Part shown: positions 22,959 through 40,931 of the stretch, piece after piece | How positions within the stretch are numbered: position 1 is the first letter of the stretch | Layout of the letters: each line of letters starts with the position of its first letter | Source of the DNA: Escherichia phage DCP80 | Sequence record: PQ671644.1 | Length of the DNA stretch: 64,000 nucleotides | Reading direction: 5' to 3' (one strand) | Made by a program: the position numbers and the translations under genes | The notes under the pieces: model-generated | Told to the model about the DNA's origin: nothing | Database searches by the model: none | The model's input: only the letters and a program-made list of their open reading frames with translations

Positions 22959-23426
22959 ATGAAAGCAATAGAGTACAAACATATGTTATACGAAAGACAA
23001 CATGGAATTTGTCTGCTATGTAAACTTCCGCTTGAAGATGTTAAAAGTTCCCATCTAGACCACGACCACGCTTTAACAGGTCCTAATGCTGGATTCTGCC
23101 GAGGACTTCTATGTCCTAGTTGTAACGTCTTGGAAGGAACTTTGCTGCATAAATTCAACAGAAGTGGATTAAAAAGTAAAACAACCTTTACAGCTTATCT
23201 TAATAACCTGCTATCTTATTATGCAAATCCACTGCATGAAAAGATACACCCTAATTTTATTAGAGATAAGGTGAAGGCTGTTTCACGGATGAGCAATCAA
23301 AGTATCATAGCTGAAATTGAAAAACTGACCTTTAACCTCCCAGCTGATAAGTCAAAGAAAGGACTTGTCAGTTTCTATCGTAAGGCTCTTAAGAAGTCCC
23401 TGGAGGACGTATGTCTGCAAAGTTAA
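22959..23426 (+). CDS. 49: Recombination endonuclease VII (T4 gp49 homologue)
   Basis: Matches the remembered T4 gp49 sequence: C..C....HLDHDH.LTGPNAG.CRGLLC..CN..EG, HKFNRSGLK and IHPNF. Confidence 0.88.
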   Translation: MKAIEYKHMLYERQHGICLLCKLPLEDVKSSHLDHDHALTGPNAGFCRGLLCPSCNVLEGTLLHKFNRSGLKSKTTFTAYLNNLLSYYANPLHEKIHPNFIRDKVKAVSRMSNQSIIAEIEKLTFNLPADKSKKGLVSFYRKALKKSLEDVCLQS

Positions 23427-24868: not shown

Positions 24869-25333
24869 ATGTCAGAAGCTTTTAACATGCTGATGAAAGA
24901 TGAAGGCATCGAGTATCATCTTTATAAATGCACGCAAGGATACTGGACAATCGGGATTGGTCATATGATTTCCCGTGATAAACAAACAGCTGAACGATTC
25001 CTTAATGAGAAATTTGGGAAGTGTGTAATAAGTAAGGAGCAGGCTATCCAGTTGTTCAAGCAAGATTATAATCATGCAGTATTAGGTGCACAGAGTATCG
25101 TAAGATTAGACACCTACCGTGAATTAGCATTGTCTAATATGGTTTTCCAGATGGGACTTGGTGGTGTACTGAAGTTCAAGAAAATGATAGCTGCACTGAA
25201 GATACAAGACTGGAACGAAGCTTATAAGCAGGCTTTAGATTCTACATGGTATAAACAAACACCTAATCGTGCCAAACGTGTGGCCGAGGTACTAAGAGAT
25301 GGGAAACAAGCATATGTCAAACATTACTCCTGA
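24869..25333 (+). CDS. e: Lysozyme (T4 gp e family endolysin)
   Basis: Aligns with T4 lysozyme: DEG....Y.....GY.TIGIGH, NMVFQMG and WY.QTPNRAKRV. Confidence 0.92.
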   Translation: MSEAFNMLMKDEGIEYHLYKCTQGYWTIGIGHMISRDKQTAERFLNEKFGKCVISKEQAIQLFKQDYNHAVLGAQSIVRLDTYRELALSNMVFQMGLGGVLKFKKMIAALKIQDWNEAYKQALDSTWYKQTPNRAKRVAEVLRDGKQAYVKHYS

Positions 25334-25526
25334 AATGATTGCTGAACTATACGTTGAGAATCATAACTTAAAGCGTCAATTCAAAGCTGCTAACGATTTC
25401 GTCGGGCAGGTAGCCATGGCTCTCCAGATGGATTCTGAAGACTCTATCGTAACTTATGAAGCATTGTCTAACAAGTTAGCTTCCGCGCTCGCCGGGGCCT
25501 CCCAGGGCGTCCAGGAAAAGCAATAG
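25299..25526 (+). CDS. Hypothetical protein (start uncertain: 25299 or 25314)
   Basis: ORF overlapping the lysozyme 3' end. No TM segment. Confidence 0.35.
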   Translation: MGNKHMSNITPEMIAELYVENHNLKRQFKAANDFVGQVAMALQMDSEDSIVTYEALSNKLASALAGASQGVQEKQ

Positions 25527-25533
25527 TTACTTT

Positions 25534-25569
25534 CCGGGGGCCCCCTCCCCGGGATGTTACGCCCACCCA
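25534..25569. other. GC-rich symmetric island, candidate cosN-like site or terminator
   Basis: ccgggggccccctccccggg contains the g5c5 palindrome and a ccgggg/ccccgg inverted repeat. It is the only strongly GC-rich stretch here and lies about 200 bp upstream of the Nu1-like gene, followed by an A-tract-rich region. Confidence 0.35.
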
Positions 25570-25693
25570 TTCTTCTGTTTACCAGAAATTTTTTTGGGAT
25601 AGCTAACACAACTTTATAATTATAAAATATTTTTTAAAATTAAAAATAGTTTTGAAAATAAATTTTGATTTTAAAATTAATTTTACAATTCAT

Positions 25694-25707
25694 GAACTTA
25701 TAAGTTC
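25694..25707. promoter_or_regulatory. Perfect 14-bp palindrome gaacttataagttc upstream of the small terminase gene
   Basis: Lies 53 nt upstream of the ATG at 25760, inside a phased A/T-tract region (25575-25755). Confidence 0.35.
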
Positions 25708-25759
25708 TTAATTTCTAAAAGATTTTCAAGAGCTTTTCCAAAACTGATGAGGAATTAAA

Positions 25760-26251
25760 ATGTCAACCAAAGACCCGATTTATCTTAACCAAAAACAAAT
25801 CTCCGAATCCTACGGAGTTACGCGCCAGACGATTGCAGAGTGGCAGAAGCGTGAAAATCCAATTCCGTGGATTGCTGGACGGGGATATCCGATGCCTGAT
25901 GCCGGAGTTTGGATTGCAGAAAATTTTATAAAAACTTTAAGACAGAACAACGAAGCACAGGATTTTAATTATCACAAGACAAGGAAGATGGCAGCAGAAG
26001 CGGACATTGCTGAAAGGGAAAACATGCTCGAGGCGCAATCCGTTATCAGAACAGATTTCGTAGAAGAGGAGTTAAGGAATTTTGTTACAAGAGTTAAGGA
26101 AACCCTCCGCGTCATTCCATTGAAGTATGCAGAAGATATTGCTATAAGAGCAACAAGCACATCAGAAGTTAAGAAGGCATTAAGGGAAGCGATTGATAAA
26201 TCCCTGAACGAGATTGACCTGTTGATGTTGTTTGAAGAGCATGAAGAATAA
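25760..26251 (+). CDS. Terminase small subunit, lambda Nu1-like
   Basis: The N-terminal wHTH LNQKQISESYGVTRQTIAEWQKRENPI resembles lambda Nu1 VNKKQLADIFGASIRTIQNWQEQGMPV. YHKTRKMAAEADIAERENM resembles YERHRLTRAQADAQELKNA. Confidence 0.7.
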   Translation: MSTKDPIYLNQKQISESYGVTRQTIAEWQKRENPIPWIAGRGYPMPDAGVWIAENFIKTLRQNNEAQDFNYHKTRKMAAEADIAERENMLEAQSVIRTDFVEEELRNFVTRVKETLRVIPLKYAEDIAIRATSTSEVKKALREAIDKSLNEIDLLMLFEEHEE

Positions 26252-26271
26252 TCCATTCCCCCAATAAAAAA

Positions 26272-26287
26272 GGGACCCGAAGGTCCC
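26272..26287. terminator. Bidirectional hairpin between convergent genes
   Basis: aaaaaagggacccgaaggtccctta. Confidence 0.7.
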
Positions 26288-26292
26288 TTACG

Positions 26293-26532
26293 TCATTCCC
26301 ACTTAATCGTTGCTACTCGCTCATACACGAGACGTAAATCAATCTTTCCTTTTACGGTATATGTTCTTTGAACTTCCCCTTGTGCTTCCACTGTGAGGCT
26401 ATCAATTAATTCATCGTTTTGATACAATCGATATAGGTTTTTCTGACGGTTTGAAATTGTTAAAGTACGTTGAACTTCTTCTTTAGTATCTTCCAATTTA
26501 TGGAGAGCTTTTAGACTAGTTGATTCGTACAT
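26293..26532 (-). CDS. Hypothetical protein (79 aa)
   Basis: ORF with SD aaggaaa. Confidence 0.5.
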   Translation of the reverse strand: MYESTSLKALHKLEDTKEEVQRTLTISNRQKNLYRLYQNDELIDSLTVEAQGEVQRTYTVKGKIDLRLVYERVATIKWE

Positions 26533-26549
26533 AGTTTTCCTTTTTAAAG

Positions 26550-26563
26550 GGGACCGAAGTCCC
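26550..26563 (-). terminator. C(UUCG)G hairpin on the minus-strand transcript
   Basis: Plus strand gggaccgaagtccc. A T-run follows on the minus strand. Confidence 0.6.
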
Positions 26564-26890
26564 TTATGCGTATAAGTGTTTTTCTTTCTTACGAAGACAG
26601 TTTTCAGAAGCTGTCAGGAGCTGCAAGTTACTTGGAGCGTTGTTCTTGCGGTTAAAATCGATATGGTCAATGTGCATACCCTCAGGAACTTCAGAATCGT
26701 TATCAAGCATCCACACGATTCGGTGAGCATACTCGTTATTATGAACCGGGTGGAAAACATGGATATAACCAGAAGGTAATTCGTAACCAGCTTCTTTGCC
26801 AGCGTGCTTACCAGTGGTGTAAATCAGTTTGTCATCAACGATTGCATAGTGAGCTTTAACGATGTCGAGAGTAATTTTAGTACGTGCCAT
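26564..26890 (-). CDS. HNH endonuclease (108 aa), late-expressed
   Basis: AHRIVWML....PEGMHIDHIDFNRKNNAPSNLQLLTASEN (HNH_3-type). Has its own TATAAATA promoter and is convergent with the Nu1-like gene. Confidence 0.8.
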   Translation of the reverse strand: MARTKITLDIVKAHYAIVDDKLIYTTGKHAGKEAGYELPSGYIHVFHPVHNNEYAHRIVWMLDNDSEVPEGMHIDHIDFNRKNNAPSNLQLLTASENCLRKKEKHLYA

Positions 26891-26910
26891 TTGATATACC
26901 TTTTAAAAAT

Positions 26911-26932
26911 GAAGCACCGGAATTGATGCTTC
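26911..26932 (-). promoter_or_regulatory. Conserved 5'-leader hairpin, copy A
   Basis: mRNA gaagca-tcaattccgg-tgcttc, downstream of TATAAATAAAAGTATGAAAAC. The stem covaries with copy B while the loop is identical. Confidence 0.5.
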
Positions 26933-26947
26933 GCGTTTTCATACTTT

Positions 26948-26955
26948 TATTTATA
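26948..26955 (-). promoter_or_regulatory. T4-type late promoter TATAAATA
   Basis: The reverse complement reads gTTATAAATAaaagtatgaaaac, 58 nt upstream of the start at 26890. Confidence 0.7.
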
Positions 26956-26969
26956 ACAGCTTTTCGGGC

Positions 26970-27152
26970 TTATTCAGAAGTCAGAATAAATTTTTGATAC
27001 TGTTTACCAGTTATCTTGTATCTGATGAAGTTGAACAAATCGAACAAATATCCAAGAGGAATCAGAGCAATCAGAAGTGGTGCCATGATGAACATCAGGA
27101 TTGCTTGGATAACAAACAGAATTGTTTCACCCAGAAATTTTAAAATAAACAT
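26970..27152 (-). CDS. Small membrane protein (60 aa, 2 predicted TM)
   Basis: Hydrophobic ILFVIQAILMFIMAPLLIALIPLGYLF. Confidence 0.5.
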   Translation of the reverse strand: MFILKFLGETILFVIQAILMFIMAPLLIALIPLGYLFDLFNFIRYKITGKQYQKFILTSE

Positions 27153-27164
27153 AGTTCTCCCGTT

Positions 27165-27178
27165 GGGGCCGAAGCCCC
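27165..27178 (-). terminator. C(UUCG)G hairpin (intercistronic)
   Basis: Plus strand ggggccgaagcccc. Confidence 0.45.
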
Positions 27179-27185
27179 AGATAAG

Positions 27186-27350
27186 TTAGCGAATTGATTT
27201 TTGTTCTTTAGCGCGATTCTTAATACCAAGTCCTTGCATCGTGGCTTCGATAACCTCGATTGCTTTAACACGTTTTTCATACTCTGCCAGAGTGATTTGT
27301 TTTTTGGCGAATTGTACATAAAGGGCAGACATAGCTTCGTAACTGTTCAT
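27186..27350 (-). CDS. Hypothetical protein (54 aa)
   Basis: Start moved to M18 of the track ORF. The longer ORF would run through its own promoter and leader. Confidence 0.45.
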   Translation of the reverse strand: MNSYEAMSALYVQFAKKQITLAEYEKRVKAIEVIEATMQGLGIKNRAKEQKSIR

Positions 27351-27368
27351 AGGATTTCTCTTTAAAGG

Positions 27369-27390
27369 GAGACACCGGAATTGATGTCTC
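27369..27390 (-). promoter_or_regulatory. Conserved 5'-leader hairpin, copy B
   Basis: mRNA gagaca-tcaattccgg-tgtctc, downstream of TATAAATAAATGTATGAAAAC. Confidence 0.5.
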
Positions 27391-27406
27391 GTTGTTTTCA
27401 TACATT

Positions 27407-27414
27407 TATTTATA
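27407..27414 (-). promoter_or_regulatory. T4-type late promoter TATAAATA
   Basis: The reverse complement reads gTTATAAATAaatgtatgaaaac. Confidence 0.7.
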
Positions 27415-27422
27415 ACGGTCTT

Positions 27423-27713
27423 TTAACGCTTTTTAAAACCACCGAAGAAGGTGCCAGATAATGATTGAGCGATTTTAGAAGCTTCATAGTTGTTTGATTC
27501 AACTTCACCATACTTCCAACCTTTACCAAGGAGTTTCAACCATTTCAATCTAGCGATTGTCACATCATGACCTGCGCAAAGGAGTTCAAATTCTTCCAGT
27601 TCATCATTAAGTAGATAAGCAAGTTTTTCTTTATCCACAGCGTATGTCCAATTGGTACCTTCGAATTCGAAGAAAACTGAATCACCGTGGGTTTCTACAT
27701 TTTTAATCTTCAT
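27423..27713 (-). CDS. Hypothetical protein (96 aa)
   Basis: ORF, start/stop-coupled to the upstream gene. Confidence 0.5.
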   Translation of the reverse strand: MKIKNVETHGDSVFFEFEGTNWTYAVDKEKLAYLLNDELEEFELLCAGHDVTIARLKWLKLLGKGWKYGEVESNNYEASKIAQSLSGTFFGGFKKR

Positions 27714-27904
27714 TAGATTTCCTTTACAATAAATTTATAAGTTACTTGGGACTCTTTAAAGACAGCTTCCGTTGCCCATTCTTCAGGTTTTTTCGAAAGC
27801 TCTGTGTGATAAAGCATTGCAGCTTCACCCTCTTGTGCTTCCAAAGCTTCTATGTAGCTTCGGCCTTCTTTAAGTTTAATAACACCGCAATCTATGATTC
27901 TCAT
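27713..27904 (-). CDS. Hypothetical protein (63 aa)
   Basis: ORF with ATGA overlap with the upstream small ORF. Confidence 0.5.
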   Translation of the reverse strand: MRIIDCGVIKLKEGRSYIEALEAQEGEAAMLYHTELSKKPEEWATEAVFKESQVTYKFIVKEI

Positions 27905-28050
27905 TTCTTGTCCAGTAGTTGTTGGTAAAATTCGATATGAGCATAAACATCTTGAATCCCGTGTAGGTAATCATCAAAGGTGATGTCCAGGTCTTCAAAG
28001 AAGTTATGATAAATTTCTTGTAGTTTGGTATAACCGTTTTCGTTAGTCAT
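27901..28050 (-). CDS. Hypothetical small protein (49 aa)
   Basis: ATG 26 nt downstream of the TATAAATA at 28076, with SD cgagg. Below the track cutoff. Confidence 0.4.
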   Translation of the reverse strand: MTNENGYTKLQEIYHNFFEDLDITFDDYLHGIQDVYAHIEFYQQLLDKK

Positions 28051-28075
28051 AAGTACCTCGTTGTTTTCATAATTT

Positions 28076-28083
28076 TATTTATA
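28076..28083 (-). promoter_or_regulatory. T4-type late promoter TATAAATA
   Basis: The reverse complement reads agTATAAATAaaattatgaaaac. Confidence 0.65.
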
Positions 28084-28087
28084 CTGA

Positions 28088-28216
28088 TTAATACTGGTTT
28101 AAATGGCGCCACAACGTGGTTCTGGATATACTATGTTTCTTCAGAACAGATTTCTTATCTTTACGACGAGCATTTTTATACTCGTCTGCAATTTGATTTA
28201 ACTTCTCGTTGGTCAT
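28088..28216 (-). CDS. Possible small HTH protein (42 aa)
   Basis: TAATG-coupled to the upstream ORF. Contains SISRTTLWRHL, an HTH-like segment. Confidence 0.3.
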   Translation of the reverse strand: MTNEKLNQIADEYKNARRKDKKSVLKKHSISRTTLWRHLNQY

Positions 28217-28947
28217 TAAAATTTTACGCATAACAGGTTGTCCAGTTGGTCTTCATGGGTTTCGATTAAGATTTCAGATTCCAGAGCTTCAGCAGCCTGA
28301 ATCATTGTGGCAGTATCACCACCAGCTTTAGCAACGTGAATCACAGTATCGAATTTACGTTTGTAAAGATTTTTCAGTTTAACTTCTTTAGTTTTCTGTG
28401 CAAAGTGTTTTTCAGATTTACGTTTAACTTCAACCAGTTCTTCTTTAACAACTTCAACTTCTTCTTCAGCTTCCTGGATAGCAACGTTTGCTTTCTTCAG
28501 AGCAGCATGTTGTGCACGAATGATTTCCATCATTTCTTCCACAGATAATTCCTCAAGATTGTTGATGTCAAATTTGACAACTTCTTTCTTTTCAACATGG
28601 TGATTAGAATTAACGGTATCGATTTCGTAAATCCAAGTTTTGTCACCGCGACGAGTCATTTCCAGGTTCTGCTGGATATAACCTTTACCTACTTTGTGAA
28701 TCACACGAGCTGAATTCCAATCAGTATGAACTACACAGATTGAATTTTCAAATTCTGCAACAAAGTAATCTCCCTCACCAAAATCAACTGCTTTAGCTTT
28801 AACTGCACGATACAGAGAACGATTAGCTGAACCAATTTCTTGTAACAAAGATTTAACAGAACTAGCATGAATTACTTTGGTTGCATTTTGTACAGACATG
28901 TTGCTTTCAGCTTGGTTTTCGCATTTTTTAAAAAGTTTGATAATCAT
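28216..28947 (-). CDS. Hypothetical protein with an acidic coiled-coil centre (243 aa)
   Basis: ORF with SD aaggaaa. Confidence 0.55.
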   Translation of the reverse strand: MIIKLFKKCENQAESNMSVQNATKVIHASSVKSLLQEIGSANRSLYRAVKAKAVDFGEGDYFVAEFENSICVVHTDWNSARVIHKVGKGYIQQNLEMTRRGDKTWIYEIDTVNSNHHVEKKEVVKFDINNLEELSVEEMMEIIRAQHAALKKANVAIQEAEEEVEVVKEELVEVKRKSEKHFAQKTKEVKLKNLYKRKFDTVIHVAKAGGDTATMIQAAEALESEILIETHEDQLDNLLCVKF

Positions 28948-28986
28948 GTGTTTTCCTTTATTTGTTAATCGTGTTATTATTTAGAA

Positions 28987-29136
28987 TTAAAAAGTGATGT
29001 GTAATTCTTTGTTGATTTCAAAGATGACAGTTGCTAATGTCAAGTTGTGTTCTTTACACCAATCAGCACGTTTAGCCGGTGGCAATTTGTTTAACGCACA
29101 GAAGATTTTCATTAATTTAATCTGATAAGAATTCAT
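28987..29136 (-). CDS. Hypothetical small protein (49 aa)
   Basis: ATG with SD gaggt, 73 nt downstream of the TATAAATA at 29209. Confidence 0.35.
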   Translation of the reverse strand: MNSYQIKLMKIFCALNKLPPAKRADWCKEHNLTLATVIFEINKELHITF

Positions 29137-29208
29137 GGTGACCTCAAGTGTTTCGATGTTTGTTAGGGTTTAAAAAAGAGGTTGTTCACCTCGTCGCTTT
29201 CATACATT

Positions 29209-29216
29209 TATTTATA
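29209..29216 (-). promoter_or_regulatory. T4-type late promoter TATAAATA
   Basis: The reverse complement reads gtgTATAAATAaatgtatgaaagc. Confidence 0.65.
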
Positions 29217-29225
29217 CACTAATTT

Positions 29226-29750
29226 TCGGCTCATTAGACAATCAGAAAAGTTCAATCCGGATTCAATCGCGTCAGGAGAATTTCCATGATAATATTTATC
29301 TCTTTATACTCACAAAAAACATTGAAACACATTTTGCAGTTTTTGGACTTTTAATCAAAAAAGGCTGTTTTTGATATTTCCGGGGGGTGCCTATGCCTTC
29401 CGGAGCACTTTTTGAGGCAAAAGTTATAAGAAACCTATTTTAATATATCAAAAGGTAATAACAAAGGCCTTTTTTCCCTCAAAAAACGTCAGAAAAAGGC
29501 TGTTTTTTCAGCTTATTTTGAGCCTTTTTTGAAGGTTCATTTTTGGGACTTTTAATCAAAAAACAAGGGAATTTTTCGGGAGCAGTACAGGGGTACTATC
29601 AGATGATAGGAGCTATCATTTAGAAGGGAGAATTGTGATTACTTATGACCGTTATACGATTGTATCGCGATTATTTGGTCAAATAACGACGAAATAATCA
29701 AAATAAATCATCGAAACACTTAGAAAACAGGCTGTTTTAGGTATAAAAAT
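29226..29750. repeat. ORF-free roughly 525-bp region with dispersed repeats
   Basis: ggacttttaatcaaaaaa occurs at 29345-29362 and 29546-29563. aaaa(a/c)aggctgtttt occurs at 29358, 29493 and 29724. T/A-tract rich. Confidence 0.8.
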
Positions 29751-29766
29751 GGCCCCTTTCGGAGCC
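29751..29766 (-). terminator. Hairpin plus T-run terminator (minus strand)
   Basis: mRNA ggctccgaaaggggcc followed by attttt, 7 nt after the stop at 29773. Confidence 0.6.
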
Positions 29767-29772
29767 TAAAAT

Positions 29773-29940
29773 TTATTTCATACGCAGGTATTTTTCATAA
29801 CTAACTTTTGACAGAGCCAAATAGTAAGCTGCATCTTTTTCTCCCGATAATTTACCTTCAGCAACTGTTGCACAATCTTCTTTGAAAGTTGCTTCCCAGG
29901 AAAATCCATCAAGCCAATCGGAAAATTGTTGTTCGTTCAT
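29773..29940 (-). CDS. Hypothetical protein (55 aa)
   Basis: Start moved to M14 (SD gaggt), adjacent to the stop of the upstream ORF. Confidence 0.45.
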   Translation of the reverse strand: MNEQQFSDWLDGFSWEATFKEDCATVAEGKLSGEKDAAYYLALSKVSYEKYLRMK

Positions 29941-29941
29941 A

Positions 29942-30148
29942 TTAACCTCTGTAATGTCTGTTGTAATGGTGTACTGCAATTTCTGTGCAAAGGTCTTCGA
30001 AGACCAATGGGATTATGTTTTCTCGGTAGACAACATAACTGTACTGTCTGTAGGTGTAGACCTCTTTATATTTCTCGAAGAACATAAACAGGTCTTGATT
30101 AGCTGTAACTTCTAACGGGGTGATTTTCCCGGCTGCATCAACTATCAT
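29942..30148 (-). CDS. Hypothetical protein (68 aa)
   Basis: ORF with SD aaggagg. Confidence 0.5.
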   Translation of the reverse strand: MIVDAAGKITPLEVTANQDLFMFFEKYKEVYTYRQYSYVVYRENIIPLVFEDLCTEIAVHHYNRHYRG

Positions 30149-30288
30149 ACTTCCTCCTTATTAACTTAATAATAGGCTCCCGCTCAGAAACCTATGATAA
30201 GGTACCACACATGAATTTAATCAAAGGTCTTCACATCACTAAAGACCTTTTGTTAAACACATGAATCAGGTCATCACTCCTGATACTT

Positions 30289-30606
30289 TTATTTATAACG
30301 GGATTTATTCATCCATTCAAATATGCCAGGGTTCCATTCGATGTTACCCATCGCTACATAATGATTGATTGCTTCTCGCAGAGACACCTGGAAGAATTCG
30401 GATTCGTCAAGTAATGAAACAATGATTTCCCCTTGTGCCTGTAAATCATCAACTGTCATCATGGAAAGAATTTCATATGCTGATTGAATTTCGTCTTCTG
30501 TGAAATCTGTGTCGAACCAATCATTAAGGTTATCATCAGATTTGTAATTATTGTAATAAGCCATACCTTCGATAACCAGATTGATAATTTCATTTACGTT
30601 GTTCAT
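30289..30606 (-). CDS. Hypothetical acidic protein (105 aa)
   Basis: Start moved to M55 of the track ORF. The longer ORF crosses the N gap and the promoter. Confidence 0.55.
   Translation of the reverse strand: MNNVNEIINLVIEGMAYYNNYKSDDNLNDWFDTDFTEDEIQSAYEILSMMTVDDLQAQGEIIVSLLDESEFFQVSLREAINHYVAMGNIEWNPGIFEWMNKSRYK
30290..30297 (-). promoter_or_regulatory. T4-type late promoter TATAAATA overlapping the upstream gene's stop
   Basis: The reverse complement reads cgTTATAAATAaaagtat. Confidence 0.55.
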
Positions 30607-30710
30607 AATTTTCTCTTTGTGTTTGGTTGATATGATAATGATACACCCTTTTGATGAGGTTGTAAACCCCTTATTGCAAATACATCTGGCATTGAAACAA
30701 ATAAATGCCA
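30600..30710. repeat. Second copy of the 111-nt repeat (identical to 1..111)
   Basis: See the feature at 1..111. Confidence 0.95.
30638..30666 (-). promoter_or_regulatory. T4-early-type sigma70 promoter
   Basis: ggTTTACA-17nt-TATCAT. The architecture is nearly the same as the promoter at 59314-59342 (ggtttaca.c..ca..aaaagggtgta..attatc). Confidence 0.6.
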
Positions 30711-30720
30711 NNNNNNNNNN
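30711..30720. other. Assembly gap (N10)
   Basis: Run of n. Confidence 1.
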
Positions 30721-30832
30721 CTTTGACCTTGACAATAGTTCCAAGGTAAGCGCCATGATACCAAACATCCCAACCCTCTTGAGTAGGTTCTACACAAGCG
30801 CGCAATTCATTAACAATATTCAGCTTATTCAT
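30721..30832 (-). CDS. Hypothetical protein, 3'-truncated by the gap
   Basis: ATG at 30832 with SD gaggaa. MNKLNIVNELRACVEPTQEGWDVWYHGAYLG... runs into the N10 gap. Confidence 0.4.
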
Positions 30833-30839
30833 AATTTCC

Positions 30840-31448
30840 TCACTTTAAGATGTTAATAACATGTTGAATGTTTTCAGTTGACATAACGTTGTCAATGTAG
30901 GTATTCAATCCACCCACTTTAACGCTAAATCCCACGTCTGTAAACTGTTTTACTATCTTTTGTTCAGTATTATACGCATGTACGCGAATCTGACCATCAC
31001 GACGAACATCAATCTGTTTTAATGTCTTGACGCGCTTGAACTTCACAATCAGATTGCTGCGGTCTTCTGAAATGCTCTTAAAGTCAATACCAATAGACAA
31101 CAATTGCTCTTTGATATATTCTGCAGTCGCTTCCATTTCATCAGTCACACCGCGTTTTGTTCTTGTCTTCTTCACTTCCAGAAGGTCAGGATTATTTTCA
31201 TTCGCCCAAAGTTCAGCTGCATCCAGAATAAGGTCAACACCCTTTTCTGTAATCATCAAACCATCACCAGAAGCTTCAACATAGTTGTTATTCAACAAGG
31301 TCTGCACACTATCAATTGATGTGTTCTGCTGGTCTAAAACAACCTCTGGACTCACGAAGTTGTTTTTGTATACAAACACCAGAGCATTGACATCAGTCTC
31401 ATGCAGCGCGTTCTGGGAGCATTTAACGATATAATTTAACTTGTTCAC
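30840..31448 (-). CDS. motA: Middle-transcription activator MotA
   Basis: Aligns with remembered T4 MotA: YIVKCSQNALHE, SGDGLMITEKG, ENNPDLLEVKKTRTKRG.TDEME, QFTDVGFSVKV and ENIQHVINIL. Adjacent to gene 52, as in T4. Confidence 0.75.
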   Translation of the reverse strand: MNKLNYIVKCSQNALHETDVNALVFVYKNNFVSPEVVLDQQNTSIDSVQTLLNNNYVEASGDGLMITEKGVDLILDAAELWANENNPDLLEVKKTRTKRGVTDEMEATAEYIKEQLLSIGIDFKSISEDRSNLIVKFKRVKTLKQIDVRRDGQIRVHAYNTEQKIVKQFTDVGFSVKVGGLNTYIDNVMSTENIQHVINILK

Positions 31449-31450
31449 AA

Positions 31451-31666
31451 TTATCCCTTAATAGATTTCATATAATTTGATGCATATGATTGTACCACAG
31501 TACGTTTCATATGGGAAGTAGAAACAATCACATCAATCGCTTGTTTGCGTTCTTCTTTAGAATTCGCCAGTTTGAACATATCAAAGTAGTAGTAACAAGC
31601 TTCTTTGTTAGATTTGAATTTAGCGTTGATGTATTCTTGACCTTCATTCTGTTGTGCAGTAAACAT
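31451..31666 (-). CDS. Hypothetical protein (71 aa)
   Basis: ATG (M5 of the track ORF) with SD ggag, downstream of an early promoter. Confidence 0.5.
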   Translation of the reverse strand: MFTAQQNEGQEYINAKFKSNKEACYYYFDMFKLANSKEERKQAIDVIVSTSHMKRTVVQSYASNYMKSIKG

Positions 31667-31715
31667 TTTATTCTCCAAAGTTTTTATGATTCATTGTGTA
31701 ACTCAGTATGGAATC

Positions 31716-31744
31716 ATTATGCCTCATGACCATCTGGTTGTACA
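31716..31744 (-). promoter_or_regulatory. Early sigma70-type promoter
   Basis: agtagTGTACA-17nt-CATAATga. The same family occurs at 34142, 35133, 35723, 40871, 59005 and in the right-arm copies. Confidence 0.6.
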
Positions 31745-31765
31745 CTACTTTTTTAAAATAAAAAA

Positions 31766-31781
31766 GGACCCCGAAGGGTCC
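31766..31781 (-). terminator. C(UUCG)G hairpin plus T-run
   Basis: Plus strand aaaaaaggaccccgaagggtcc. Confidence 0.7.
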
Positions 31782-31879
31782 TAGTCTTTATCTATCTTAT
31801 TACCAATAAACATACCAACAATCACACCTGCGATTGCCGCAAAAATACAAAGCAATGCAAACTCAACTCCAAAACTCAT
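31781..31879 (-). CDS. Small membrane peptide (32 aa)
   Basis: ATGA overlap with the gene 52 stop, SD ggagg. Hydrophobic FALLCIFAAIAGVIVGMFIG. Confidence 0.35.
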   Translation of the reverse strand: MSFGVEFALLCIFAAIAGVIVGMFIGNKIDKD

Positions 31880-33255
31880 AGAGCCTCCAAATCATTAAGG
31901 TATTCAGTTTTAACATCAGTTGTCTTCCAGTACTCATGCTCAGCTTTCTTAGCCTTTGCTTCGTCTGCAAGCTTCTTGGCTTCATCAGAGGTCATATGGT
32001 AGATGTTCATTGCCACTAACTTCTCTGCATAATCGCCATATATTTCACTCGCCTGGAGTTCCTCAATCAACTTCTTACGAGGTTTCCCCTGGATAACAAC
32101 CTTACCGTCAATCACTTCTTTAATAAAGAAGACTTTTGCCCGGGCCAGTTTAAATGCTGCTTCAGTTTCTTTAATCTTACTGTCAATTCGCACTTGAACA
32201 TAAGTCTTACGGACATCAACGAAATCGCGAATCAGGTCAAGCGTGTTGGTGTATTCAGCCAGCTTGCCTTTGTGATTAAGCACTGTTAAGTTTTGGGAGA
32301 GCTTCTCAATCAGACCAAAGTCTTTCATGATTTTCTCATGATTTTCTTCTTCAGTACCATCCAGCTTGTATTCTTTGCGGAATTTAATCTTAAACCCAAA
32401 ACCATGCTCGCCGCAGTTATCTTTCCAGGTGATAAAACCTTTCTCTTCCAGCGGGTCCAGGATTTTACTTGTATACTTTTCTAGGTTCCATTGGACCGGG
32501 ATTTCAGTAATTTCCATTTGGGTCCTGGAAGTCATTTTGTACGTGCCATGAAGCTCATACTTACCAGGCTCTTCCAGCTCAACCACTTCACCACGGAATT
32601 CTGGATATTTTACTTTCGGCGCAACCGGCTCACGACCTTCCACGATAGCTTTAACAGCTTCCTTGACGTCCTGGAACGAATGAGGAAGAATATCAGTAGC
32701 GAAGCCAACAGCAATCCCAGAAGTGGCGTTAAGTAATACAGTAGGAATAACAGGAAGATAAAAAGCAGGAGGCTTATGTTCTTCATCAGGATGGACCGGA
32801 GCATATTCTGTATCCTTAAACAAGTTATAAAAGTTCTTTGAAACCCGTGCGAATACATAACGAGCTGATGATGCTTCTGGCACCATTCTGGAACCAAAGT
32901 TGCCTTGTCCATCAAACATGGGGTATTCATTTTTATATGTTGCGACCAGACCAGAAGTTGCTTCTTCCGCTGATGCTTCACCATGGTGATAACCATAATC
33001 AGCTACGCCGCCGGCGATGGATGCAACTTTATGGAATTTATTCTTATCACCGCGCGCCAGGTCTAATGCTCTCGCCATAACAAATCTGTGAACTGGTTTA
33101 AAACCATCAATCATGTTTGGGATTGCGCGACCTTCCACAGTGTAGATAGCATATGATAATGCTTCCACATCAATAATGTCTTTTAGACTGCGTGGGTTAA
33201 GGGTCCCCATTGAATCACTGAACTGTTTGGACATCATACTTAAAACGTCAGACAT
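31876..33255 (-). CDS. 52: DNA topoisomerase II medium subunit (T4 gp52, GyrA-like)
   Basis: GyrA/ParC N-terminal motif IDGFKPVHRFV. The 459-aa size and the position next to motA match T4 gp52. Confidence 0.85.
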   Translation of the reverse strand: MSDVLSMMSKQFSDSMGTLNPRSLKDIIDVEALSYAIYTVEGRAIPNMIDGFKPVHRFVMARALDLARGDKNKFHKVASIAGGVADYGYHHGEASAEEATSGLVATYKNEYPMFDGQGNFGSRMVPEASSARYVFARVSKNFYNLFKDTEYAPVHPDEEHKPPAFYLPVIPTVLLNATSGIAVGFATDILPHSFQDVKEAVKAIVEGREPVAPKVKYPEFRGEVVELEEPGKYELHGTYKMTSRTQMEITEIPVQWNLEKYTSKILDPLEEKGFITWKDNCGEHGFGFKIKFRKEYKLDGTEEENHEKIMKDFGLIEKLSQNLTVLNHKGKLAEYTNTLDLIRDFVDVRKTYVQVRIDSKIKETEAAFKLARAKVFFIKEVIDGKVVIQGKPRKKLIEELQASEIYGDYAEKLVAMNIYHMTSDEAKKLADEAKAKKAEHEYWKTTDVKTEYLNDLEAL

Positions 33256-33263
33256 ATATCACC

Positions 33264-33404
33264 TTACCAGATTAACGAATGTACTGCCATTATAGCATCA
33301 GAAATAAAAAGCACAACCTGCACTAATGCAAATACAACTCCATAATATAGCGCTACCAATAAGGCAGCAAGGGCTAACGAGTAGCCCAGGATTTTCTTAA
33401 TCAT
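33264..33404 (-). CDS. Small membrane protein (46 aa)
   Basis: Hydrophobic ORF overlapping the upstream ORF's end. No clear SD. Confidence 0.3.
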   Translation of the reverse strand: MIKKILGYSLALAALLVALYYGVVFALVQVVLFISDAIMAVHSLIW

Positions 33405-33558
33405 TTTTAATCATCTTAAGTAAACCGACAAAAGTAGAAAGAATCCAGCCAATAAACAGAAAACTTAAGAATAGCGGACCAGGGGTCCAGACTCCTAAAA
33501 AGAAGCAGACTGAACAAACCACGGCAATAATAAGTTCGATAAAAGCCAGAATAATCAT
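33397..33558 (-). CDS. Small membrane protein (53 aa)
   Basis: Start at M8 with SD gagga. Two hydrophobic segments. Confidence 0.4.
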   Translation of the reverse strand: MIILAFIELIIAVVCSVCFFLGVWTPGPLFLSFLFIGWILSTFVGLLKMIKND

Positions 33559-33647
33559 ATTTTCCTCAAGGGCGTCCAAAGACGCCAGTTAATTTAAGAT
33601 TATGGCGATGCCATTGCATCACATGTTCATTATGGAAATTACTCATA

Positions 33648-34097
33648 TTAATAACTCTGCAGAATGAATTTAAAGTTATCAGCAAGCATGCGATTCATTT
33701 CTGAAAGGGTCTGGCAATCAGAACTATGTGAGCGAGTGAACGCCATCGCAATTTGACCTTTACCATAACCAGTTGTCAGGGGTTTCATTTTAGAAACTGG
33801 AACAAACAGGACTTCATAGATAACACCATTGTTCGCCATTGTGCGCGACAGTTGCGAACGCTGTTTGCGGATGTGACTTAATACAGTGTCAAACCCTTGT
33901 TGTGAACGTTGGTTACCAACGTAAAAACGTGCAGCAACAATACGTGATTCGCCTTCACCCTTAACTACAAAATAAAAACCTGGTTGAGTGATAGCTTCTT
34001 TAGTTGGACGCCCTGCAACATAATTACCATTATGGATATAAGCAACAGTGGTAGCGCCAGCATTCAGTACGTCACGACGGGTCATGTAAGTATTCAT
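33648..34097 (-). CDS. ndd: Ndd-like nucleoid disruption protein
   Basis: 149 aa. The blocks [39 protein letters not shown] and [10 protein letters not shown] resemble my recollection of T4 Ndd. Lies between rIIB and 52, as in T4. Confidence 0.5.
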
Positions 34098-34141
34098 ATT
34101 AATTTCCTCAGTAAGTTAAAGTTTTGTGCTCCAGTGGGGTC

Positions 34142-34170
34142 ATTATACTCTGACCCCAAGAGTATGTACA
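34142..34170 (-). promoter_or_regulatory. Early sigma70-type promoter
   Basis: atagTGTACA-17nt-TATAATga. Confidence 0.6.
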
Positions 34171-34515
34171 CTATTTTTGAAGTTGTTCTAAAATAAATCC
34201 GCTGGTGTAAAGGCTTGCATTATACAGGCGGTCAAGAGACAACGAATCCAATCCATAAGCTTCGCGAATTGCATTGATAGCACTCTCATAACTTGTATAA
34301 TAAACATCGCGATAATCGCGGTCCATAGTCATGCGGAACTTAATAAATTTGTAGAAACCAGTTTCAGGGTCCTGATAGAATGCAAATTCTGCAGACATCA
34401 AATTTTTAAGGTTAACAGCTTTTGTACCACCTGAATAACTTAAATCAAATGCTTCTGATACGCTAATCTGTTTAAAGAACATAATGTTGCGATTACCAAA
34501 AAATACTTTAGACAT
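34171..34515 (-). CDS. Hypothetical protein (114 aa)
   Basis: ORF with SD gagga. Confidence 0.5.
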   Translation of the reverse strand: MSKVFFGNRNIMFFKQISVSEAFDLSYSGGTKAVNLKNLMSAEFAFYQDPETGFYKFIKFRMTMDRDYRDVYYTSYESAINAIREAYGLDSLSLDRLYNASLYTSGFILEQLQK

Positions 34516-34530
34516 AATATTTTCCTCAGC

Positions 34531-34776
34531 TTATTCAGGGTCTACTGCGCCATCCCACAAGTCAACTTCTTCTGATGATTCCATCAGTTCATCAACTGTG
34601 AAGCACTCAGTATTATTTTCAATTGCAAAACGCTTCTGATAAAAAGGATAATCCAAACAGTTTTCAGTGCGCACTGGACGCTCGCTGTTATCCATTAAAG
34701 GCGAAATGCGAATCAGTTGTTGACCATTACCCAGGACAAATTTTTCACCAACTGCAACGTCTTTAAAAAGTTTCAT
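34531..34776 (-). CDS. Hypothetical protein (81 aa)
   Basis: ORF. Confidence 0.5.
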   Translation of the reverse strand: MKLFKDVAVGEKFVLGNGQQLIRISPLMDNSERPVRTENCLDYPFYQKRFAIENNTECFTVDELMESSEEVDLWDGAVDPE

Positions 34777-34979
34777 TGCTTAGCTCCATTCCAAATTACA
34801 TCAACAACAGACTTCAAACCATTATCCTGGATTTGTGTGAATACTTCAGCAGCAATCCAGACCTGGAAACCAATCATTGCAATGGCACCAATGAAAATCA
34901 GGATAATCATTGCCACAATAAACTTGAACATAAAGTCAAAGCGACGATTGGATTTCTGAAAGTGTGAATTGTAATTCAT
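34773..34979 (-). CDS. Membrane protein (68 aa)
   Basis: Start at M17 with SD gagga. TM segment FKFIVAMIILIFIGAIAMIGFQVWIAA. A truncated copy lies at 49644..49790. Confidence 0.5.
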   Translation of the reverse strand: MNYNSHFQKSNRRFDFMFKFIVAMIILIFIGAIAMIGFQVWIAAEVFTQIQDNGLKSVVDVIWNGAKQ

Positions 34980-34989
34980 AATATTATCC

Positions 34990-35106
34990 TCAAAAGAAAT
35001 AGTTAAAGTAAACACGTACATGGTCAATCATAAAAATAATTGGGAAAATGCTCAGGACAACAAACAATACAAACATGTTCCAAATGGCTTTAAGTAACTT
35101 TTTCAT
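34990..35106 (-). CDS. Small membrane protein (38 aa)
   Basis: SD ggaga. Conserved in the right arm (49360..49476). Confidence 0.4.
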   Translation of the reverse strand: MKKLLKAIWNMFVLFVVLSIFPIIFMIDHVRVYFNYFF

Positions 35107-35132
35107 AATCATCTCCAGTAGTTGATAGGTTC

Positions 35133-35160
35133 ATTATACTACAACCACCGGAGATGTACA
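35133..35160 (-). promoter_or_regulatory. Early sigma70-type promoter
   Basis: gagTGTACA-16nt-TATAATga followed by the leader tcaactactggaga. Confidence 0.6.
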
Positions 35161-35251
35161 CTCTTTTATGCAAGTTTCATTAATAATAAACTAAAACAAA
35201 CGCAAATTACTGGAATACACAACATCCAGATAAGACACCAGGTTTTGCTGC

Positions 35252-35518
35252 TCAAAATATCACCTCTTTTATTTCAATCAGACCCCTGTGCAATGCGGTG
35301 CGAAGGTCATAAAGAATATCTATGCCATCAACATTATCCAGTTTTCCATCAATAAGCTTTTTTAAATCATGCTTTGATGCAACTAGCGGGCGAAGAAATT
35401 TACATTCAGAAAGAGACAATTCTGTAGTAATATCATCACCATCACCTGACGCATCATACATGGCAGCAACAACCATACCTGTAACTTTGTGCTTGGCGTA
35501 ATATAATTTAATATCCAT
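35252..35518 (-). CDS. Hypothetical protein (88 aa), KLYYAKHKVTG family
   Basis: Start at M25. Homologue of 48949..49215 and paralogue of 48689..48952. Confidence 0.5.
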   Translation of the reverse strand: MDIKLYYAKHKVTGMVVAAMYDASGDGDDITTELSLSECKFLRPLVASKHDLKKLIDGKLDNVDGIDILYDLRTALHRGLIEIKEVIF

Positions 35519-35528
35519 TCTGTTTTCC

Positions 35529-35684
35529 TCACGCATAACGATTGTATGTATTTTTACGACAAGCGTAAAATTGACGCTCAGTAACTGCAAAACTTTTTCC
35601 GCGTTGTTGCATTAATTTAAAAAATTCAGTAATATCGCCATTAACTTCAAGGTATAAAGTCATTGCATATTGAGCAGGTTTCAT
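35529..35684 (-). CDS. Hypothetical small protein (51 aa)
   Basis: SD ggag. Present only in the left arm (replaced by 48689..48952 in the right arm). Confidence 0.35.
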   Translation of the reverse strand: MKPAQYAMTLYLEVNGDITEFFKLMQQRGKSFAVTERQFYACRKNTYNRYA

Positions 35685-35722
35685 TTTATTCTCCAGTCTG
35701 TTTGGTAACTCAGTATGGAATC

Positions 35723-35751
35723 ATTATGCACTGACTCCATACTGATGTACA
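35723..35751 (-). promoter_or_regulatory. Early sigma70-type promoter
   Basis: agtagTGTACA-17nt-CATAATgattccatactgagttac. Confidence 0.6.
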
Positions 35752-35762
35752 CTACTTTTTAA

Positions 35763-36038
35763 TTAATTGTGCATTTGTTCTTTAACTTCTTTATATGCGC
35801 CAACTGCATTCACGACCCCAGTAAAATCTGCAGTCCCACGATAGAGATAGAAAGCAATTTCAGTCAGGTGGTAGACTTCAAATTCTGAAAGATAAACGAT
35901 AACGTCATAATATGCAACTTGACCCTGGACTTCGTTGAATGCCACATCAAAAATTTCATGGGTTGGAAAATTGATGTTGTTGTTTTTGAGTGCTTGGATA
36001 AGAATTTGTTTGATGTTGTGAGTAGTAACGTGTTCCAT
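35763..36038 (-). CDS. Hypothetical protein (91 aa)
   Basis: Start at M31 of the track ORF, which otherwise overlaps the upstream gene. Confidence 0.5.
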   Translation of the reverse strand: MEHVTTHNIKQILIQALKNNNINFPTHEIFDVAFNEVQGQVAYYDVIVYLSEFEVYHLTEIAFYLYRGTADFTGVVNAVGAYKEVKEQMHN

Positions 36039-36085
36039 GATAATGTCCTCATTTGTTGGTATGAGGACATTATTACACGGTTGGT

Positions 36086-36679
36086 TCAGCTTGTAAACCG
36101 GTGATAGGGAAATTTTTCTTCTGAACAAGAACGGAGGTACCAGCCATCCCCTTGTGACTTCTGCACAAGACCAGACTCAGGAACGAAAGCACCAGGCCCA
36201 GCAAGGAATTTTGGTTTAAATCTATAACCTTTGAGAGTCTCTTTTACATCGAGCATAATCATAAGGTCAGCAAGCTTGTGCTGCATAAAAGGACCAAGAT
36301 TAATCCCGTAACCATGCGGATAATCGCCCTGGTGGCCAGTGTGTACGGATATCCATTTGGAACCAGACTGGTGGGTCTTGACTTCGATTCTTACCCCTTC
36401 CTTCGAAACTACATCAAATGCAAAGGAATAAGGATTATCGTAATCTTCGTCGCCGCCACATAAAAAACCAGAAGTCCATTTAGCAATAGCTTGTTCAGCC
36501 ATTGTAGCAACCATGCATCTTTGCATGACTTGCTCACGGTCCTGACCTGGGTCTTTACGCAATGAATACCGGGTAGTGTCTACAATCTTCTGCAGGGATT
36601 CGGGGTTTAAGTCTTCCTTTGTATAAAGAAAGGAGGGCATCTTTTTCAGATGCTCCCAGGTTTTACTCTTCTGAATCAT
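36086..36679 (-). CDS. denB: Putative nuclease, DenB (endonuclease IV)-like by position
   Basis: PD-(D/E)xK-like motif FAFDVV...RIEVKTHQ. 197 aa, located downstream of rIIB where T4 has denB. I cannot verify sequence identity to T4 DenB. Confidence 0.4.
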   Translation of the reverse strand: MIQKSKTWEHLKKMPSFLYTKEDLNPESLQKIVDTTRYSLRKDPGQDREQVMQRCMVATMAEQAIAKWTSGFLCGGDEDYDNPYSFAFDVVSKEGVRIEVKTHQSGSKWISVHTGHQGDYPHGYGINLGPFMQHKLADLMIMLDVKETLKGYRFKPKFLAGPGAFVPESGLVQKSQGDGWYLRSCSEEKFPYHRFTS

Positions 36680-36932
36680 TTACGACCTCATCGATACCGA
36701 CGATTCCACGGATGTGAAGCTCACCATAATACAAACGGTCATTAGCATCAAATGTATCAGAATCCGGGTCAGGGAATTCCCCAACAACTACTTCATCACA
36801 TTCCAACCAACCATAGTGAACATCACCTTCATGCTTGATGAGCTTACCGCAGTAAACTATTCCTGCATAATGATGACCCCGGAGATTTGAAACTTTGATG
36901 TCACGGTCTGACACATTGAAATGCTTAATCAT
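36663..36932 (-). CDS. Hypothetical protein (89 aa)
   Basis: ORF, conserved in both arms. Confidence 0.5.
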   Translation of the reverse strand: MIKHFNVSDRDIKVSNLRGHHYAGIVYCGKLIKHEGDVHYGWLECDEVVVGEFPDPDSDTFDANDRLYYGELHIRGIVGIDEVVNDSEE

Positions 36933-36935
36933 AAT

Positions 36936-37133
36936 TTATTCACCAAAATAAGAGATACGAGTTGCCAGTACATGAGCATAAGCGCCCATCGCGTCTAACT
37001 GTGCAATCAAAAGACCTTGTTGACGAGCATCGAGAGTTTCAAAAACACCGCCCTTAATAAATTCTTCAAGAGCATTGATTTTCAAAACCAGCTGGTCATG
37101 TTCTTCAACTACACGTGCTTGGAAACCTAACAT
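36936..37133 (-). CDS. Hypothetical protein (65 aa)
   Basis: ORF with SD tgagg, conserved in both arms. Confidence 0.5.
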   Translation of the reverse strand: MLGFQARVVEEHDQLVLKINALEEFIKGGVFETLDARQQGLLIAQLDAMGAYAHVLATRISYFGE

Positions 37134-37145
37134 AAAGCCTCATTA

Positions 37146-37159
37146 GGGGCCGAAGCCCC
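37146..37159 (-). terminator. C(UUCG)G hairpin in the rIIB-downstream spacer (endonuclease-free site)
   Basis: Plus strand ggggccgaagcccc. This spacer is replaced by the HNH-AP2 gene in the right arm. Confidence 0.5.
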
Positions 37160-37166
37160 GATTAAT

Positions 37167-38141: not shown

Positions 38142-38142
38142 A

Positions 38143-40377: not shown

Positions 40378-40384
40378 GTTTTTC

Positions 40385-40594
40385 TCACTTTATGTTACGT
40401 TTGATTAATTCTGCAACTTCAAGAAGTTCATCCTTTGTTGCGGTGTCTGAAGCTATTTTAATACGGATTTCTTTGAAGCGTTCTTTAAACTCTTCAGCTT
40501 CTCTTATATCAAAAAAACGTTGGATAACACGGTATTCTTTATGGATAGCCTTATCAAACAGTTCCATATTAACTTTGAAGTTCGTCATTTCCAA
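40385..40594 (-). CDS. Hypothetical protein (69 aa)
   Basis: ORF, conserved in both arms. Confidence 0.5.
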   Translation of the reverse strand: MEMTNFKVNMELFDKAIHKEYRVIQRFFDIREAEEFKERFKEIRIKIASDTATKDELLEVAELIKRNIK

Positions 40595-40853: not shown

Positions 40854-40870
40854 ATTTTCACCTCAAAGAC

Positions 40871-40926: not shown

Positions 40927-40931
40927 AAATT

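Follow-up and report, generated by a model that had tools for sequence, protein, structure and literature searches.

Comparison with described cos systems

The genome of phage lambda carries 12-nt 5′ cohesive ends, and the gene order around them is R/Rz, cos, Nu1. Phages with 3′ cos ends of the HK97 type have a 10-nt 3′ overhang and an HNH accessory nuclease. In P2, the terminase genes M and P are not adjacent; ~2 kb of head genes lie between them, with divergent operons beside cos. Here we describe a locus comparable to these in the record PQ671644.1 of Escherichia phage DCP80, a stretch of 64,000 nt on a single strand from 5′ to 3′ (hereafter the window). It is probable that positions 25525-25613 are the cos site of a 30.6-kb siphovirus-like phage and that the open reading frame (ORF) at 25760-26251 encodes its Nu1-type small terminase (TerS). 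The sole part of the window belonging to this phage is contig A (1-30710), one of six contigs. Because the same 111 bases are present at both of its ends (1-111 are identical to 30600-30710), contig A closes as a unit of 30,599 bp. An earlier annotation of this DNA (hereafter the original prediction) had used a circular reading, which holds for contig A and fails for the rest of the window, where the contigs are those of another phage.

Several features are shared with lambda. The large terminase (TerL) is of the gpA type with a nuclease domain of its own, TerS is of the Nu1 type with a winged helix-turn-helix (HTH), and the nicking region, itself rich in GC, gives way to an AT-rich stretch. 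The site follows the lysis genes directly and is separated from terS by ~200 bp. This lambda-like distance had been predicted and was confirmed, a conserved box lying at -235 to -200 relative to the TerS ATG; a lysis ORF stops at 25526. Moreover, we propose that terS would be reached by late transcripts crossing cos. However, terS and terL are 6.1 kb apart in contig A, with a block of genes on the opposite strand between them. Unlike in lambda, no IHF consensus, demonstrable R-site array or conserved dyad symmetry was found in the region, and the sequence of the putative overhang is free to vary between relatives.

With the HK97 type the locus shares putative 3′ cohesive ends of similar length and an HNH-family gene near terS. 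However, TerL is of the gpA type, and the HNH_3 gene is of the homing type, on the opposite strand and downstream of terS. A role for HNH_3 as an HK97-like cos cofactor was rejected on these grounds, a gpA nuclease domain being present. P2 sets a precedent, being a cos phage in which the genes for the two terminase subunits lie apart and are transcribed separately, although in contig A the gap consists of ~6 kb of early or regulatory genes and one strand carries both subunit genes. Among isolated phages, TerS matched a single protein, annotated as TerS in Klebsiella phage KA2-1 (27% identity, with 90% of the query covered); the TerL of KA2-1 also matches that of contig A (~28%). In KA2-1, however, terS (105-560) and terL (625-2361) are adjacent and at the start of the record.

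Contig ends at the proposed site

An identical TerS protein was found on eight contigs of public assemblies and a 75%-identical version on three more. In SRR30884460, one contig (L010, 22.9 kb) stops at 25542 and another (L003, 5.8 kb) begins at 25554. The same two limits were found in SRR22355887, from a different strain, where L012 (21.3 kb) stops at 25542 and L006 begins at 25554. The bases lost in both of these fully informative samples are exactly CCCTCCCCGGG (25543-25553), 11 nt. In SRR27732226, which holds a 75%-identical TerS relative, L009 begins at the equivalent ATGTTACG, and no contig ending there was recovered. The lineage of L009 lacks the G5C5 hairpin present in contig A, yet its contig begins at the same base.

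The authors of PhageTerm report that assemblers place cos ends at contig limits, that end repair fills 5′ overhangs and removes 3′ overhangs so that a gap is left between the termini, and that read-through is common where circular or replicating DNA is present (PMC5557969). Cos ends with 3′ overhangs would thus yield contigs ending at the termini, with the intervening bases lost in end repair. A 3′ polarity is favoured here because the contig ends do not overlap but leave 11 nt between them. No repeat was found to explain the breaks at 25542 and 25554, since the 21-mer at 25551-25571 has no other match in the window, even with 3 mismatches allowed, and no repeat involving 25513-25583 was reported elsewhere in the window.

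A conserved bipartite box

The contig ends fall within a bipartite box, AGTTACT-N21-GGGATGTTAC. Between the window lineage and the 75%-identical lineage both halves of the box are conserved, its centre is not, and the flanking sequence on either side is of intermediate identity (Table 1). Both proposed nicks lie inside the box, one in the variable centre and one at the edge of the right half. In ~8 distinct versions of the upstream region the box follows the pattern AGKTWCT-N19-21-GRKKTTWC, with a register of 27±1 bp. When 19 sequences (332 kb) were scanned on both strands, 17 contained this pattern, once per locus and in each case on the TerS strand at 170-240 bp upstream of the gene; having been derived from the sequences scanned, the pattern has a uniqueness that is a descriptive check and not an independent test. 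The other two (L052 and L053) have no such pattern, and their upstream context differs. E. coli prophages in which TerS identity falls to 26-31% carry the box as well. The box thus combines flanks that are conserved, a spacing that is constant and a centre that varies freely, and it lies exactly at the contig ends; the best explanation for it is a terminase cutting site. An attP site was also considered and was rejected, as the box remains intact in prophages.

To the right of the nick, a further block is conserved (ATGTTACGCCCACCCATT ... TTTACC ... AAATTTTTTTG ... GCTAACACAAC). Its first 18 nt (25554-25571) are identical to the 75%-identical relative and the remainder (25572-25613) is 67% identical, against ~50% in the flanks. 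On the basis of this conservation, the block is a candidate TerS-binding, cosB-like region.

The complete divergence of the centre between lineages makes the putative overhang look like a local hotspot of change. The near-identical contigs L013 (7368-7380) and L014 (1994-2006) have three adjacent differences here, CCGGTGAGGG versus CCGTCAAGGG, at the equivalent of window positions 25541-25545, the left edge of the putative overhang. An exact-pattern scan of IMG/VR with the right half of the box gave one chance match, inside a high-GC gene, and the same scans of JGI metagenomes and GTDB genomes gave no matches.

Composition of the region upstream of terS

All coordinates in the original prediction were correct, and its strongly GC-rich element at 25534-25553 was borne out: CCGGGGGCCCCCTCCCCGGG is the GC-richest 20-mer of the whole 30,599-bp unit (19/20). 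The region 25479-25556 is the sole stretch of the unit composed of 60-nt windows at ≥65% GC. The most AT-rich 150-nt stretch of the unit (in 25554-25776, up to 85% AT) adjoins the GC-rich 20-mer. The symmetry of the GC element, by contrast, did not hold up as a cos feature, as the hairpin symmetry is absent from the 75%-identical relative (L013/L014); it spans 25534-25552 and is centred on 25543, not between the proposed nicks. Rotational symmetry around the nick sites, as is characteristic of lambda-type cos, was not conserved. The hairpin was also rejected as an intrinsic terminator, since no T-run follows it on either strand, in contrast to contig A's own terminators, which have the form GGGACCTTCGGGTCCC-T6.

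The predicted 14-bp palindrome GAACTTATAAGTTC at 25694-25707 is indeed perfect, although a special role for it is unsupported. It is one of three perfect 14-bp palindromes in 25613-25707 (the others being 25613-25626 and 25672-25685), and is not conserved in the 75%-identical relative; such palindromes arise easily in sequence that is 85% AT. It overlaps a TATAAG/TATAAAT-like element found at the same aligned position in both lineages. The AT-rich spacer probably carries the TerS promoter. Similarly, the A/T tracts described previously are real, but their helical phasing does not exceed that of shuffled sequence, as the AA/TT periodicity at 10-11.5 bp in 25570-25759 was reached by 199/500 dinucleotide shuffles.

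The small terminase protein

The ORF at 25760-26251, which is preceded by a ribosome-binding site (RBS), had been called Nu1-like. This is supported by its match to phrog_57 ('terminase small subunit'; E = 9.4e-20), which covers residues 3-152 of 163. Among the PHROGs, 'excisionase and transcriptional regulator' and 'DNA binding protein' matched less strongly. When 1.8 billion representatives were searched with a profile of the protein, 69 remote homologues were recovered, mostly as full-length matches and 140-240 aa in length, and Pfam Phage_Nu1 was matched by 32/52 of those aligned (best 1.8e-15). An AlphaFold2 (AF2) model of the protein (pLDDT 93) comprises an N-terminal winged HTH followed by long helices (H11-18, H22-31, strand 42-44, long helices 47-162). 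Sequence matches in the PDB were weak, and 5/6 were small-terminase HTH domains or a TerS-binding protein (1J9I, 6HN7_B, 7LW0, 7LXS and RppC). Foldseek searches of the PDB with the model returned winged HTHs of the MerR/RacA type plus 6HN7_B, none of them significant. From these comparisons, the protein appears to be a distant member of the Nu1 superfamily and not a close homologue of Nu1. A scan of IMG/VR with the protein found no relatives. The GpA gene of the original prediction was likewise recognised as a gpA-type TerL (Table 1).

Proposed cutting and packaging scheme

For the nicking chemistry and polarity, the TerS binding sites and the direction of packaging, we infer the following scheme. 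TerS would bind the conserved block right of the box through its N-terminal winged HTH and position the GpA-type TerL (1734-3716), whose own nuclease domain would nick the two strands 11 bp apart. The bottom-strand nick would fall between 25542 and 25543 and the top-strand nick between 25553 and 25554, giving cohesive ends of CCCTCCCCGGG, most simply as 3′ overhangs. By analogy with lambda only, packaging would proceed rightwards from ATGTTACG..., with terS entering first. The mature map would then read cos, terS, minus-strand early block, 1.2-kb non-coding region, terL, head, tail, lysis, cos. In this arrangement terS would be the last gene read by late transcripts, which would cross cos on circles or concatemers of the DNA; alternatively, a weak promoter nearby would express terS. 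For terL there is a separate TATAAATA promoter at 1260.

Alternative explanations

A number of points weigh against this interpretation. The putative physical ends at 25542 and 25554 were taken from contig limits. In SRR14520626, one contig (L011) stops at 25539, 3 nt earlier, and another (L007) begins further in, at ~25635. Four contigs begin at scattered AT-rich positions, suggesting that the region is generally break-prone, and the site is read through in four assemblies (the window, L001, L002 and L013/L014). As a control, exact recurrent breaks were also found in the 1.2-kb non-coding region, at 746/747 and 467/468. The contig gap implies 11-nt 3′ ends, as opposed to the 12-nt 5′ ends of lambda. 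The IHF consensus WATCAANNNNTTR was not found in 25500-25760, and with no significant AA/TT phasing either, IHF-bent DNA as in lambda was not supported. A search for R-sites gave short repeats resembling GTTAC (at 25526, 25556 and 25577) and AT repeats of low complexity, besides the conserved block at 25554-25613. With regard to TerS, the score against Pfam Phage_Nu1 (PF07471) is 20.5 bits, below the 30-bit gathering cut-off, and the structural matches are weak (E = 0.08-0.6).

Some of these points would be expected if the contig breaks were assembly or coverage artefacts, the box being a regulatory site (for late read-through into terS) or the site of some other protein, and packaging starting elsewhere, for example in the 1.2-kb region, which is non-coding, repeat-rich and directly upstream of the terL operon. 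The scattered AT-rich starts, the end that is 3 nt short and the exact breaks at 746 and 467 all fit such an explanation. However, the break at 746 coincides with a 30-nt exact repeat (717-746 and 866-895), a length that presumably represents k-1 if the contigs were built with k=31; it is an assembly break and not a genome end, whereas no such repeat was found for 25542 or 25554. Break positions within the 1.2-kb region also vary between samples. At the proposed site, the contig of the relative that lacks the G5C5 hairpin has its break at the equivalent base. L013 and L014 carry their variants at other positions, and a variant bubble would therefore not begin a contig at ATGTT. Moreover, no T-run follows the box. 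Taken as a whole, an artefactual origin of the breaks with packaging from another site is unlikely. Headful (pac) packaging, with the site marking only a first and imprecise cut, would be in keeping with the several assemblies that close into a circle or read through the site, but is highly improbable given that in two samples the ends on either side are each fixed to one base and that TerL is of the gpA type, the best-known member of which, that of lambda, is a cos enzyme. At ~467/468, L002 and L006, which are from different samples, both end, and no explaining repeat was found.

The identity of TerS was also considered. Two coupled small ORFs (1287-1468 and 1466-1735) occupy the classical TerS position, and one of these could be the real TerS were the ORF at 25760-26251 a MerR/excisionase-like regulator. 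The sub-threshold Pfam Nu1 score, the weaker regulator, excisionase and DNA-binding PHROG matches, and best fold matches to RacA and MerR-type winged HTHs are compatible with this. Nevertheless, it is very unlikely: the phrog_57 match spans nearly the whole protein and not the HTH alone, the full-length remote homologues are mostly Pfam Nu1, and the gene keeps a fixed relation to the GpA TerL and the box across the family. The two small ORFs, on the other hand, are without family matches, including in PHROG. Returning to the cos reading, the fixed contig ends in independent assemblies and the conserved box support the central claim of the original prediction, that 25534-25760 is a cos region beside a Nu1-like TerS. 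The feature is real, and very probably represents a cos site together with the small terminase that belongs to it, arranged as a conserved variant of the lambda type.

Split layout and prophage relatives

In the closed map of contig A, 6,081 bp separate the terS stop from the terL start, both genes being on the same strand. The separation noted in the original prediction is thus real and atypical compared with lambda, but to call TerS displaced is misleading. In 26/28 related loci, TerL follows TerS on the same strand at a distance of 5.0-7.6 kb, and the other two end too early. As the gap is kept in all 26 relatives that reach TerL, the split layout is a trait of the family and not a displacement in contig A, and from this comparison it appears to be ancestral to the family.

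The remote TerS homologues (26-31% identical) lie in prophages, such as that of E. coli MEI003 (L032/L057; NZ_CP071263.1, ~224.7-260.4 kb), which is 35.7 kb long and inserted in hicB. Its TerS region was matched in 64/5,426 complete E. coli genomes, and its TerS homologue is annotated only as 'hypothetical protein'. The prophages, which are the closest relatives recovered, share with contig A the order TerS-like gene, 5-7.6-kb block, GpA TerL (43-57% identical), 160-aa gene, portal, protease-capsid fusion, fibres and tail, with the same bipartite box upstream of TerS. By comparison, TerL is at most ~30% identical to that of any isolated phage in the collection searched. The prophages differ in being integrated and in carrying a large serine recombinase; where contig A has a T4-type lysozyme, they have an M15 peptidase. 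The MEI003 prophage also has a Gp38-type adhesin, an intervening block of hypothetical and regulatory-looking genes, the serine recombinase at the end of the element, and no annotated replication gene. Contig A, unlike the prophages, has no recognised integrase or recombinase, and carries endonuclease VII, an e-type lysozyme and T4-like promoters.

These elements define a putative packaging module that can be searched for. It starts with the bipartite box of the proposed cos site, which is followed after ~200 bp by TerS and, at a further 5-7.6 kb, by a GpA TerL. The module belongs to a family of phages and prophages of E. coli and other bacterial genomes that was absent from the isolated-phage collection searched, and whose small terminase carries only a 'hypothetical' annotation. 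Sequence alone could suffice to set the genome ends and start points of its members. Should the 11-nt 3′ ends be correct, this would be a gpA-type terminase cutting with a polarity opposite to that of lambda, and the variable overhang between two conserved boxes would provide a natural experiment on how a terminase chooses its nick sites.

Gene content of contig A

Genes were assigned by Pfam and PHROG profile searches, and their coordinates are given in Table 1 together with those of the site. The N-terminus of the second fibre-like protein matches PHROGs of the T4 gp37-type 'long tail fiber distal subunit'. The position of the HNH_3 gene is kept in both lineages (that of the window and the L009/L013 group). 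The largest protein of the early block (243 aa; 28216-28947, minus strand) has no family match and a single distant homologue (46%), found in a 23.8-kb contig (L058) with T4-like baseplate genes.

Table 1. Features of contig A and of the proposed cos site. Identities are between the window lineage and the 75%-identical lineage.
Feature	Position	Strand	Remarks
Non-coding repeat-rich region, 1.2 kb	8-1286	none	
Early promoter of minus-strand block, GTTTACA-17 nt-TATCAT	27-81	-	
34-nt hairpin element ACATCTGGCATT-loop-AATGCCAGATGT, two copies	82-115, 202-235		30681-30710 lies in the 111-bp terminal identity
Repeat units of ~148 bp	700-828, 849-976		inside the 1.2-kb non-coding region
Two near-identical MotA-box middle promoters	803-827, 951-975	-	in the ~148-bp repeat units of the gene-free 1.2-kb region
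TATAAATA promoter motif of the terL operon	1260	+	
Other TATAAATA motifs, plus strand	3838, 4229, 5731, 5977, 6286, 7931, 10595, 13165, 13736, 18212	+	
TATAAATA motifs, minus strand	26948, 27407, 28076, 29209, 30290	-	
Two small ORFs, 60 and 89 aa	1287-1735 (1287-1468, 1466-1735)	+	coupled to the TerL start
Large terminase TerL, lambda gpA type, ATPase and nuclease domains	1734-3716	+	PF05876 8e-52, PF20454 4e-50
161-aa gene	between TerL and portal	+	
Lambda-family portal	4194-5735	+	
Protease-capsid fusion	5789-7789	+	
Two large fibre-like proteins, 699 and 745 aa	8760-13136	+	between head genes and major tail protein
Major tail protein, tape measure, distal tail and tail-tip proteins	after fibre-like genes	+	
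Endonuclease VII (T4)	22959-23426	+	
T4 e-type lysozyme	24869-25333	+	
75-aa ORF, lysis cassette	25299-25526	+	directly upstream of the proposed cos site
Bipartite box, proposed cos nicking site	25525-25560	+	contains the GC-rich 20-mer 25534-25553
Left box	25525-25538		13/14 (93%) identity
Centre	25539-25550		0/12 (0%) identity
Right box	25551-25571		21/21 (100%) identity
Flanking sequence	either side of box		44-67% identity
CCCTCCCCGGG, putative 11-nt cohesive end	25543-25553	+	3′ overhang on top strand of right end; from contig gap
Conserved block	25554-25613	+	right of nick
AT-rich spacer, ~85% AT	25614-25759	+	three palindromes and TerS RBS; 49% identical to relative
Small terminase gene terS, 163 aa	25760-26251	+	RBS present
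Hairpin terminator	26270-26289	-	between terS and convergent minus-strand genes
Small, mostly unassigned genes	26293-30606	-	block separating terS from terL
HNH_3 (PF13392) homing-type endonuclease gene	26564-26890	-	just downstream of terS

The 111-bp identity between the ends of contig A was considered as a physical terminal repeat and rejected. The contig stops exactly where the two copies of the 34-nt hairpin diverge (A at 112, G at 232), and the identity is therefore a feature of the assembly. Moreover, other assemblies break at different repeats of the same region.

T4-type regulatory signals

The T4 late-promoter motif TATAAATA occurs 16 times in contig A, in every case co-oriented with the genes, against an expectation of ~3.8 for the whole 64-kb window and ~2 for contig A. 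Several copies directly follow GGGACCTTCGGGTCCC-T6 terminators, forming terminator-plus-promoter cassettes at 7906, 13140, 13711 and 18187. The two MotA-box promoters (TGCTTYA, a 12-nt spacer and an extended -10 element, TATAAT with TGn) are conserved in L001, and each is followed by a repeat containing GCGAAGC. Their presence may indicate either a T4-style origin or genes for small RNAs; MotA promoters in gene-free DNA are reminiscent, by analogy, of T4 replication origins, in which a middle promoter is followed by an unwinding element. Over 55 nt, the early promoter serving the minus-strand block matches DNA of VR7 and its relatives at 85% identity; the matching DNA is intergenic and lies upstream of mobD.5. 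This 55-nt match and a fragment of the lysozyme gene were the only matches in a DNA comparison with isolated phages.

No replication, transcription or integration gene was recognised in contig A by Pfam or PHROG. In particular, motA, asiA, 55, 33 and 45 were not found in these searches, and many of the small ORFs are without assignment. The presence of T4-type early, MotA-box and 16 TATAAATA signals without recognisable replication or transcription genes raises the idea that contig A is not autonomous and may be a virulent, capsid-and-tail-encoding parasite of T-even-type phages. The endonuclease VII, the e-type lysozyme, the gp37-like fibre N-termini and the co-assembly with a VR7-like phage point the same way. 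However, the integrated E. coli relatives are also without recognisable replication genes and also carry TATAAATA before genes, as seen in L032, and dependence on a helper is rather doubtful. If it were true, the split-terminase cos system would package only its own DNA from a pool replicated by the helper. No description of a T4-dependent satellite of this kind was found in the literature searched. The T4-like signals make the genome of contig A worth isolating.

Remaining contigs of the window

The six contigs of the window are divided by runs of N at 30711-30720, 40994-41040, 49791-49800, 56743-56760 and 62887-62940. Scans of the window for tRNA genes and Rfam families gave no matches. Contigs B-F (30721-64000) carry T4-type replication genes, including gp44, gp45, UvsX and topoisomerase. 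Their DNA is ~96% identical to VR7-like T4-type coliphages and the gp45 protein is 100% identical; on this basis, they were rejected as part of the same phage as contig A. Lastly, contigs B (30721-40993) and C (41041-49790) are inverted copies, 96% identical (range 94-99%), of one rIIA/topoisomerase region, which suggests that two strains were co-assembled.

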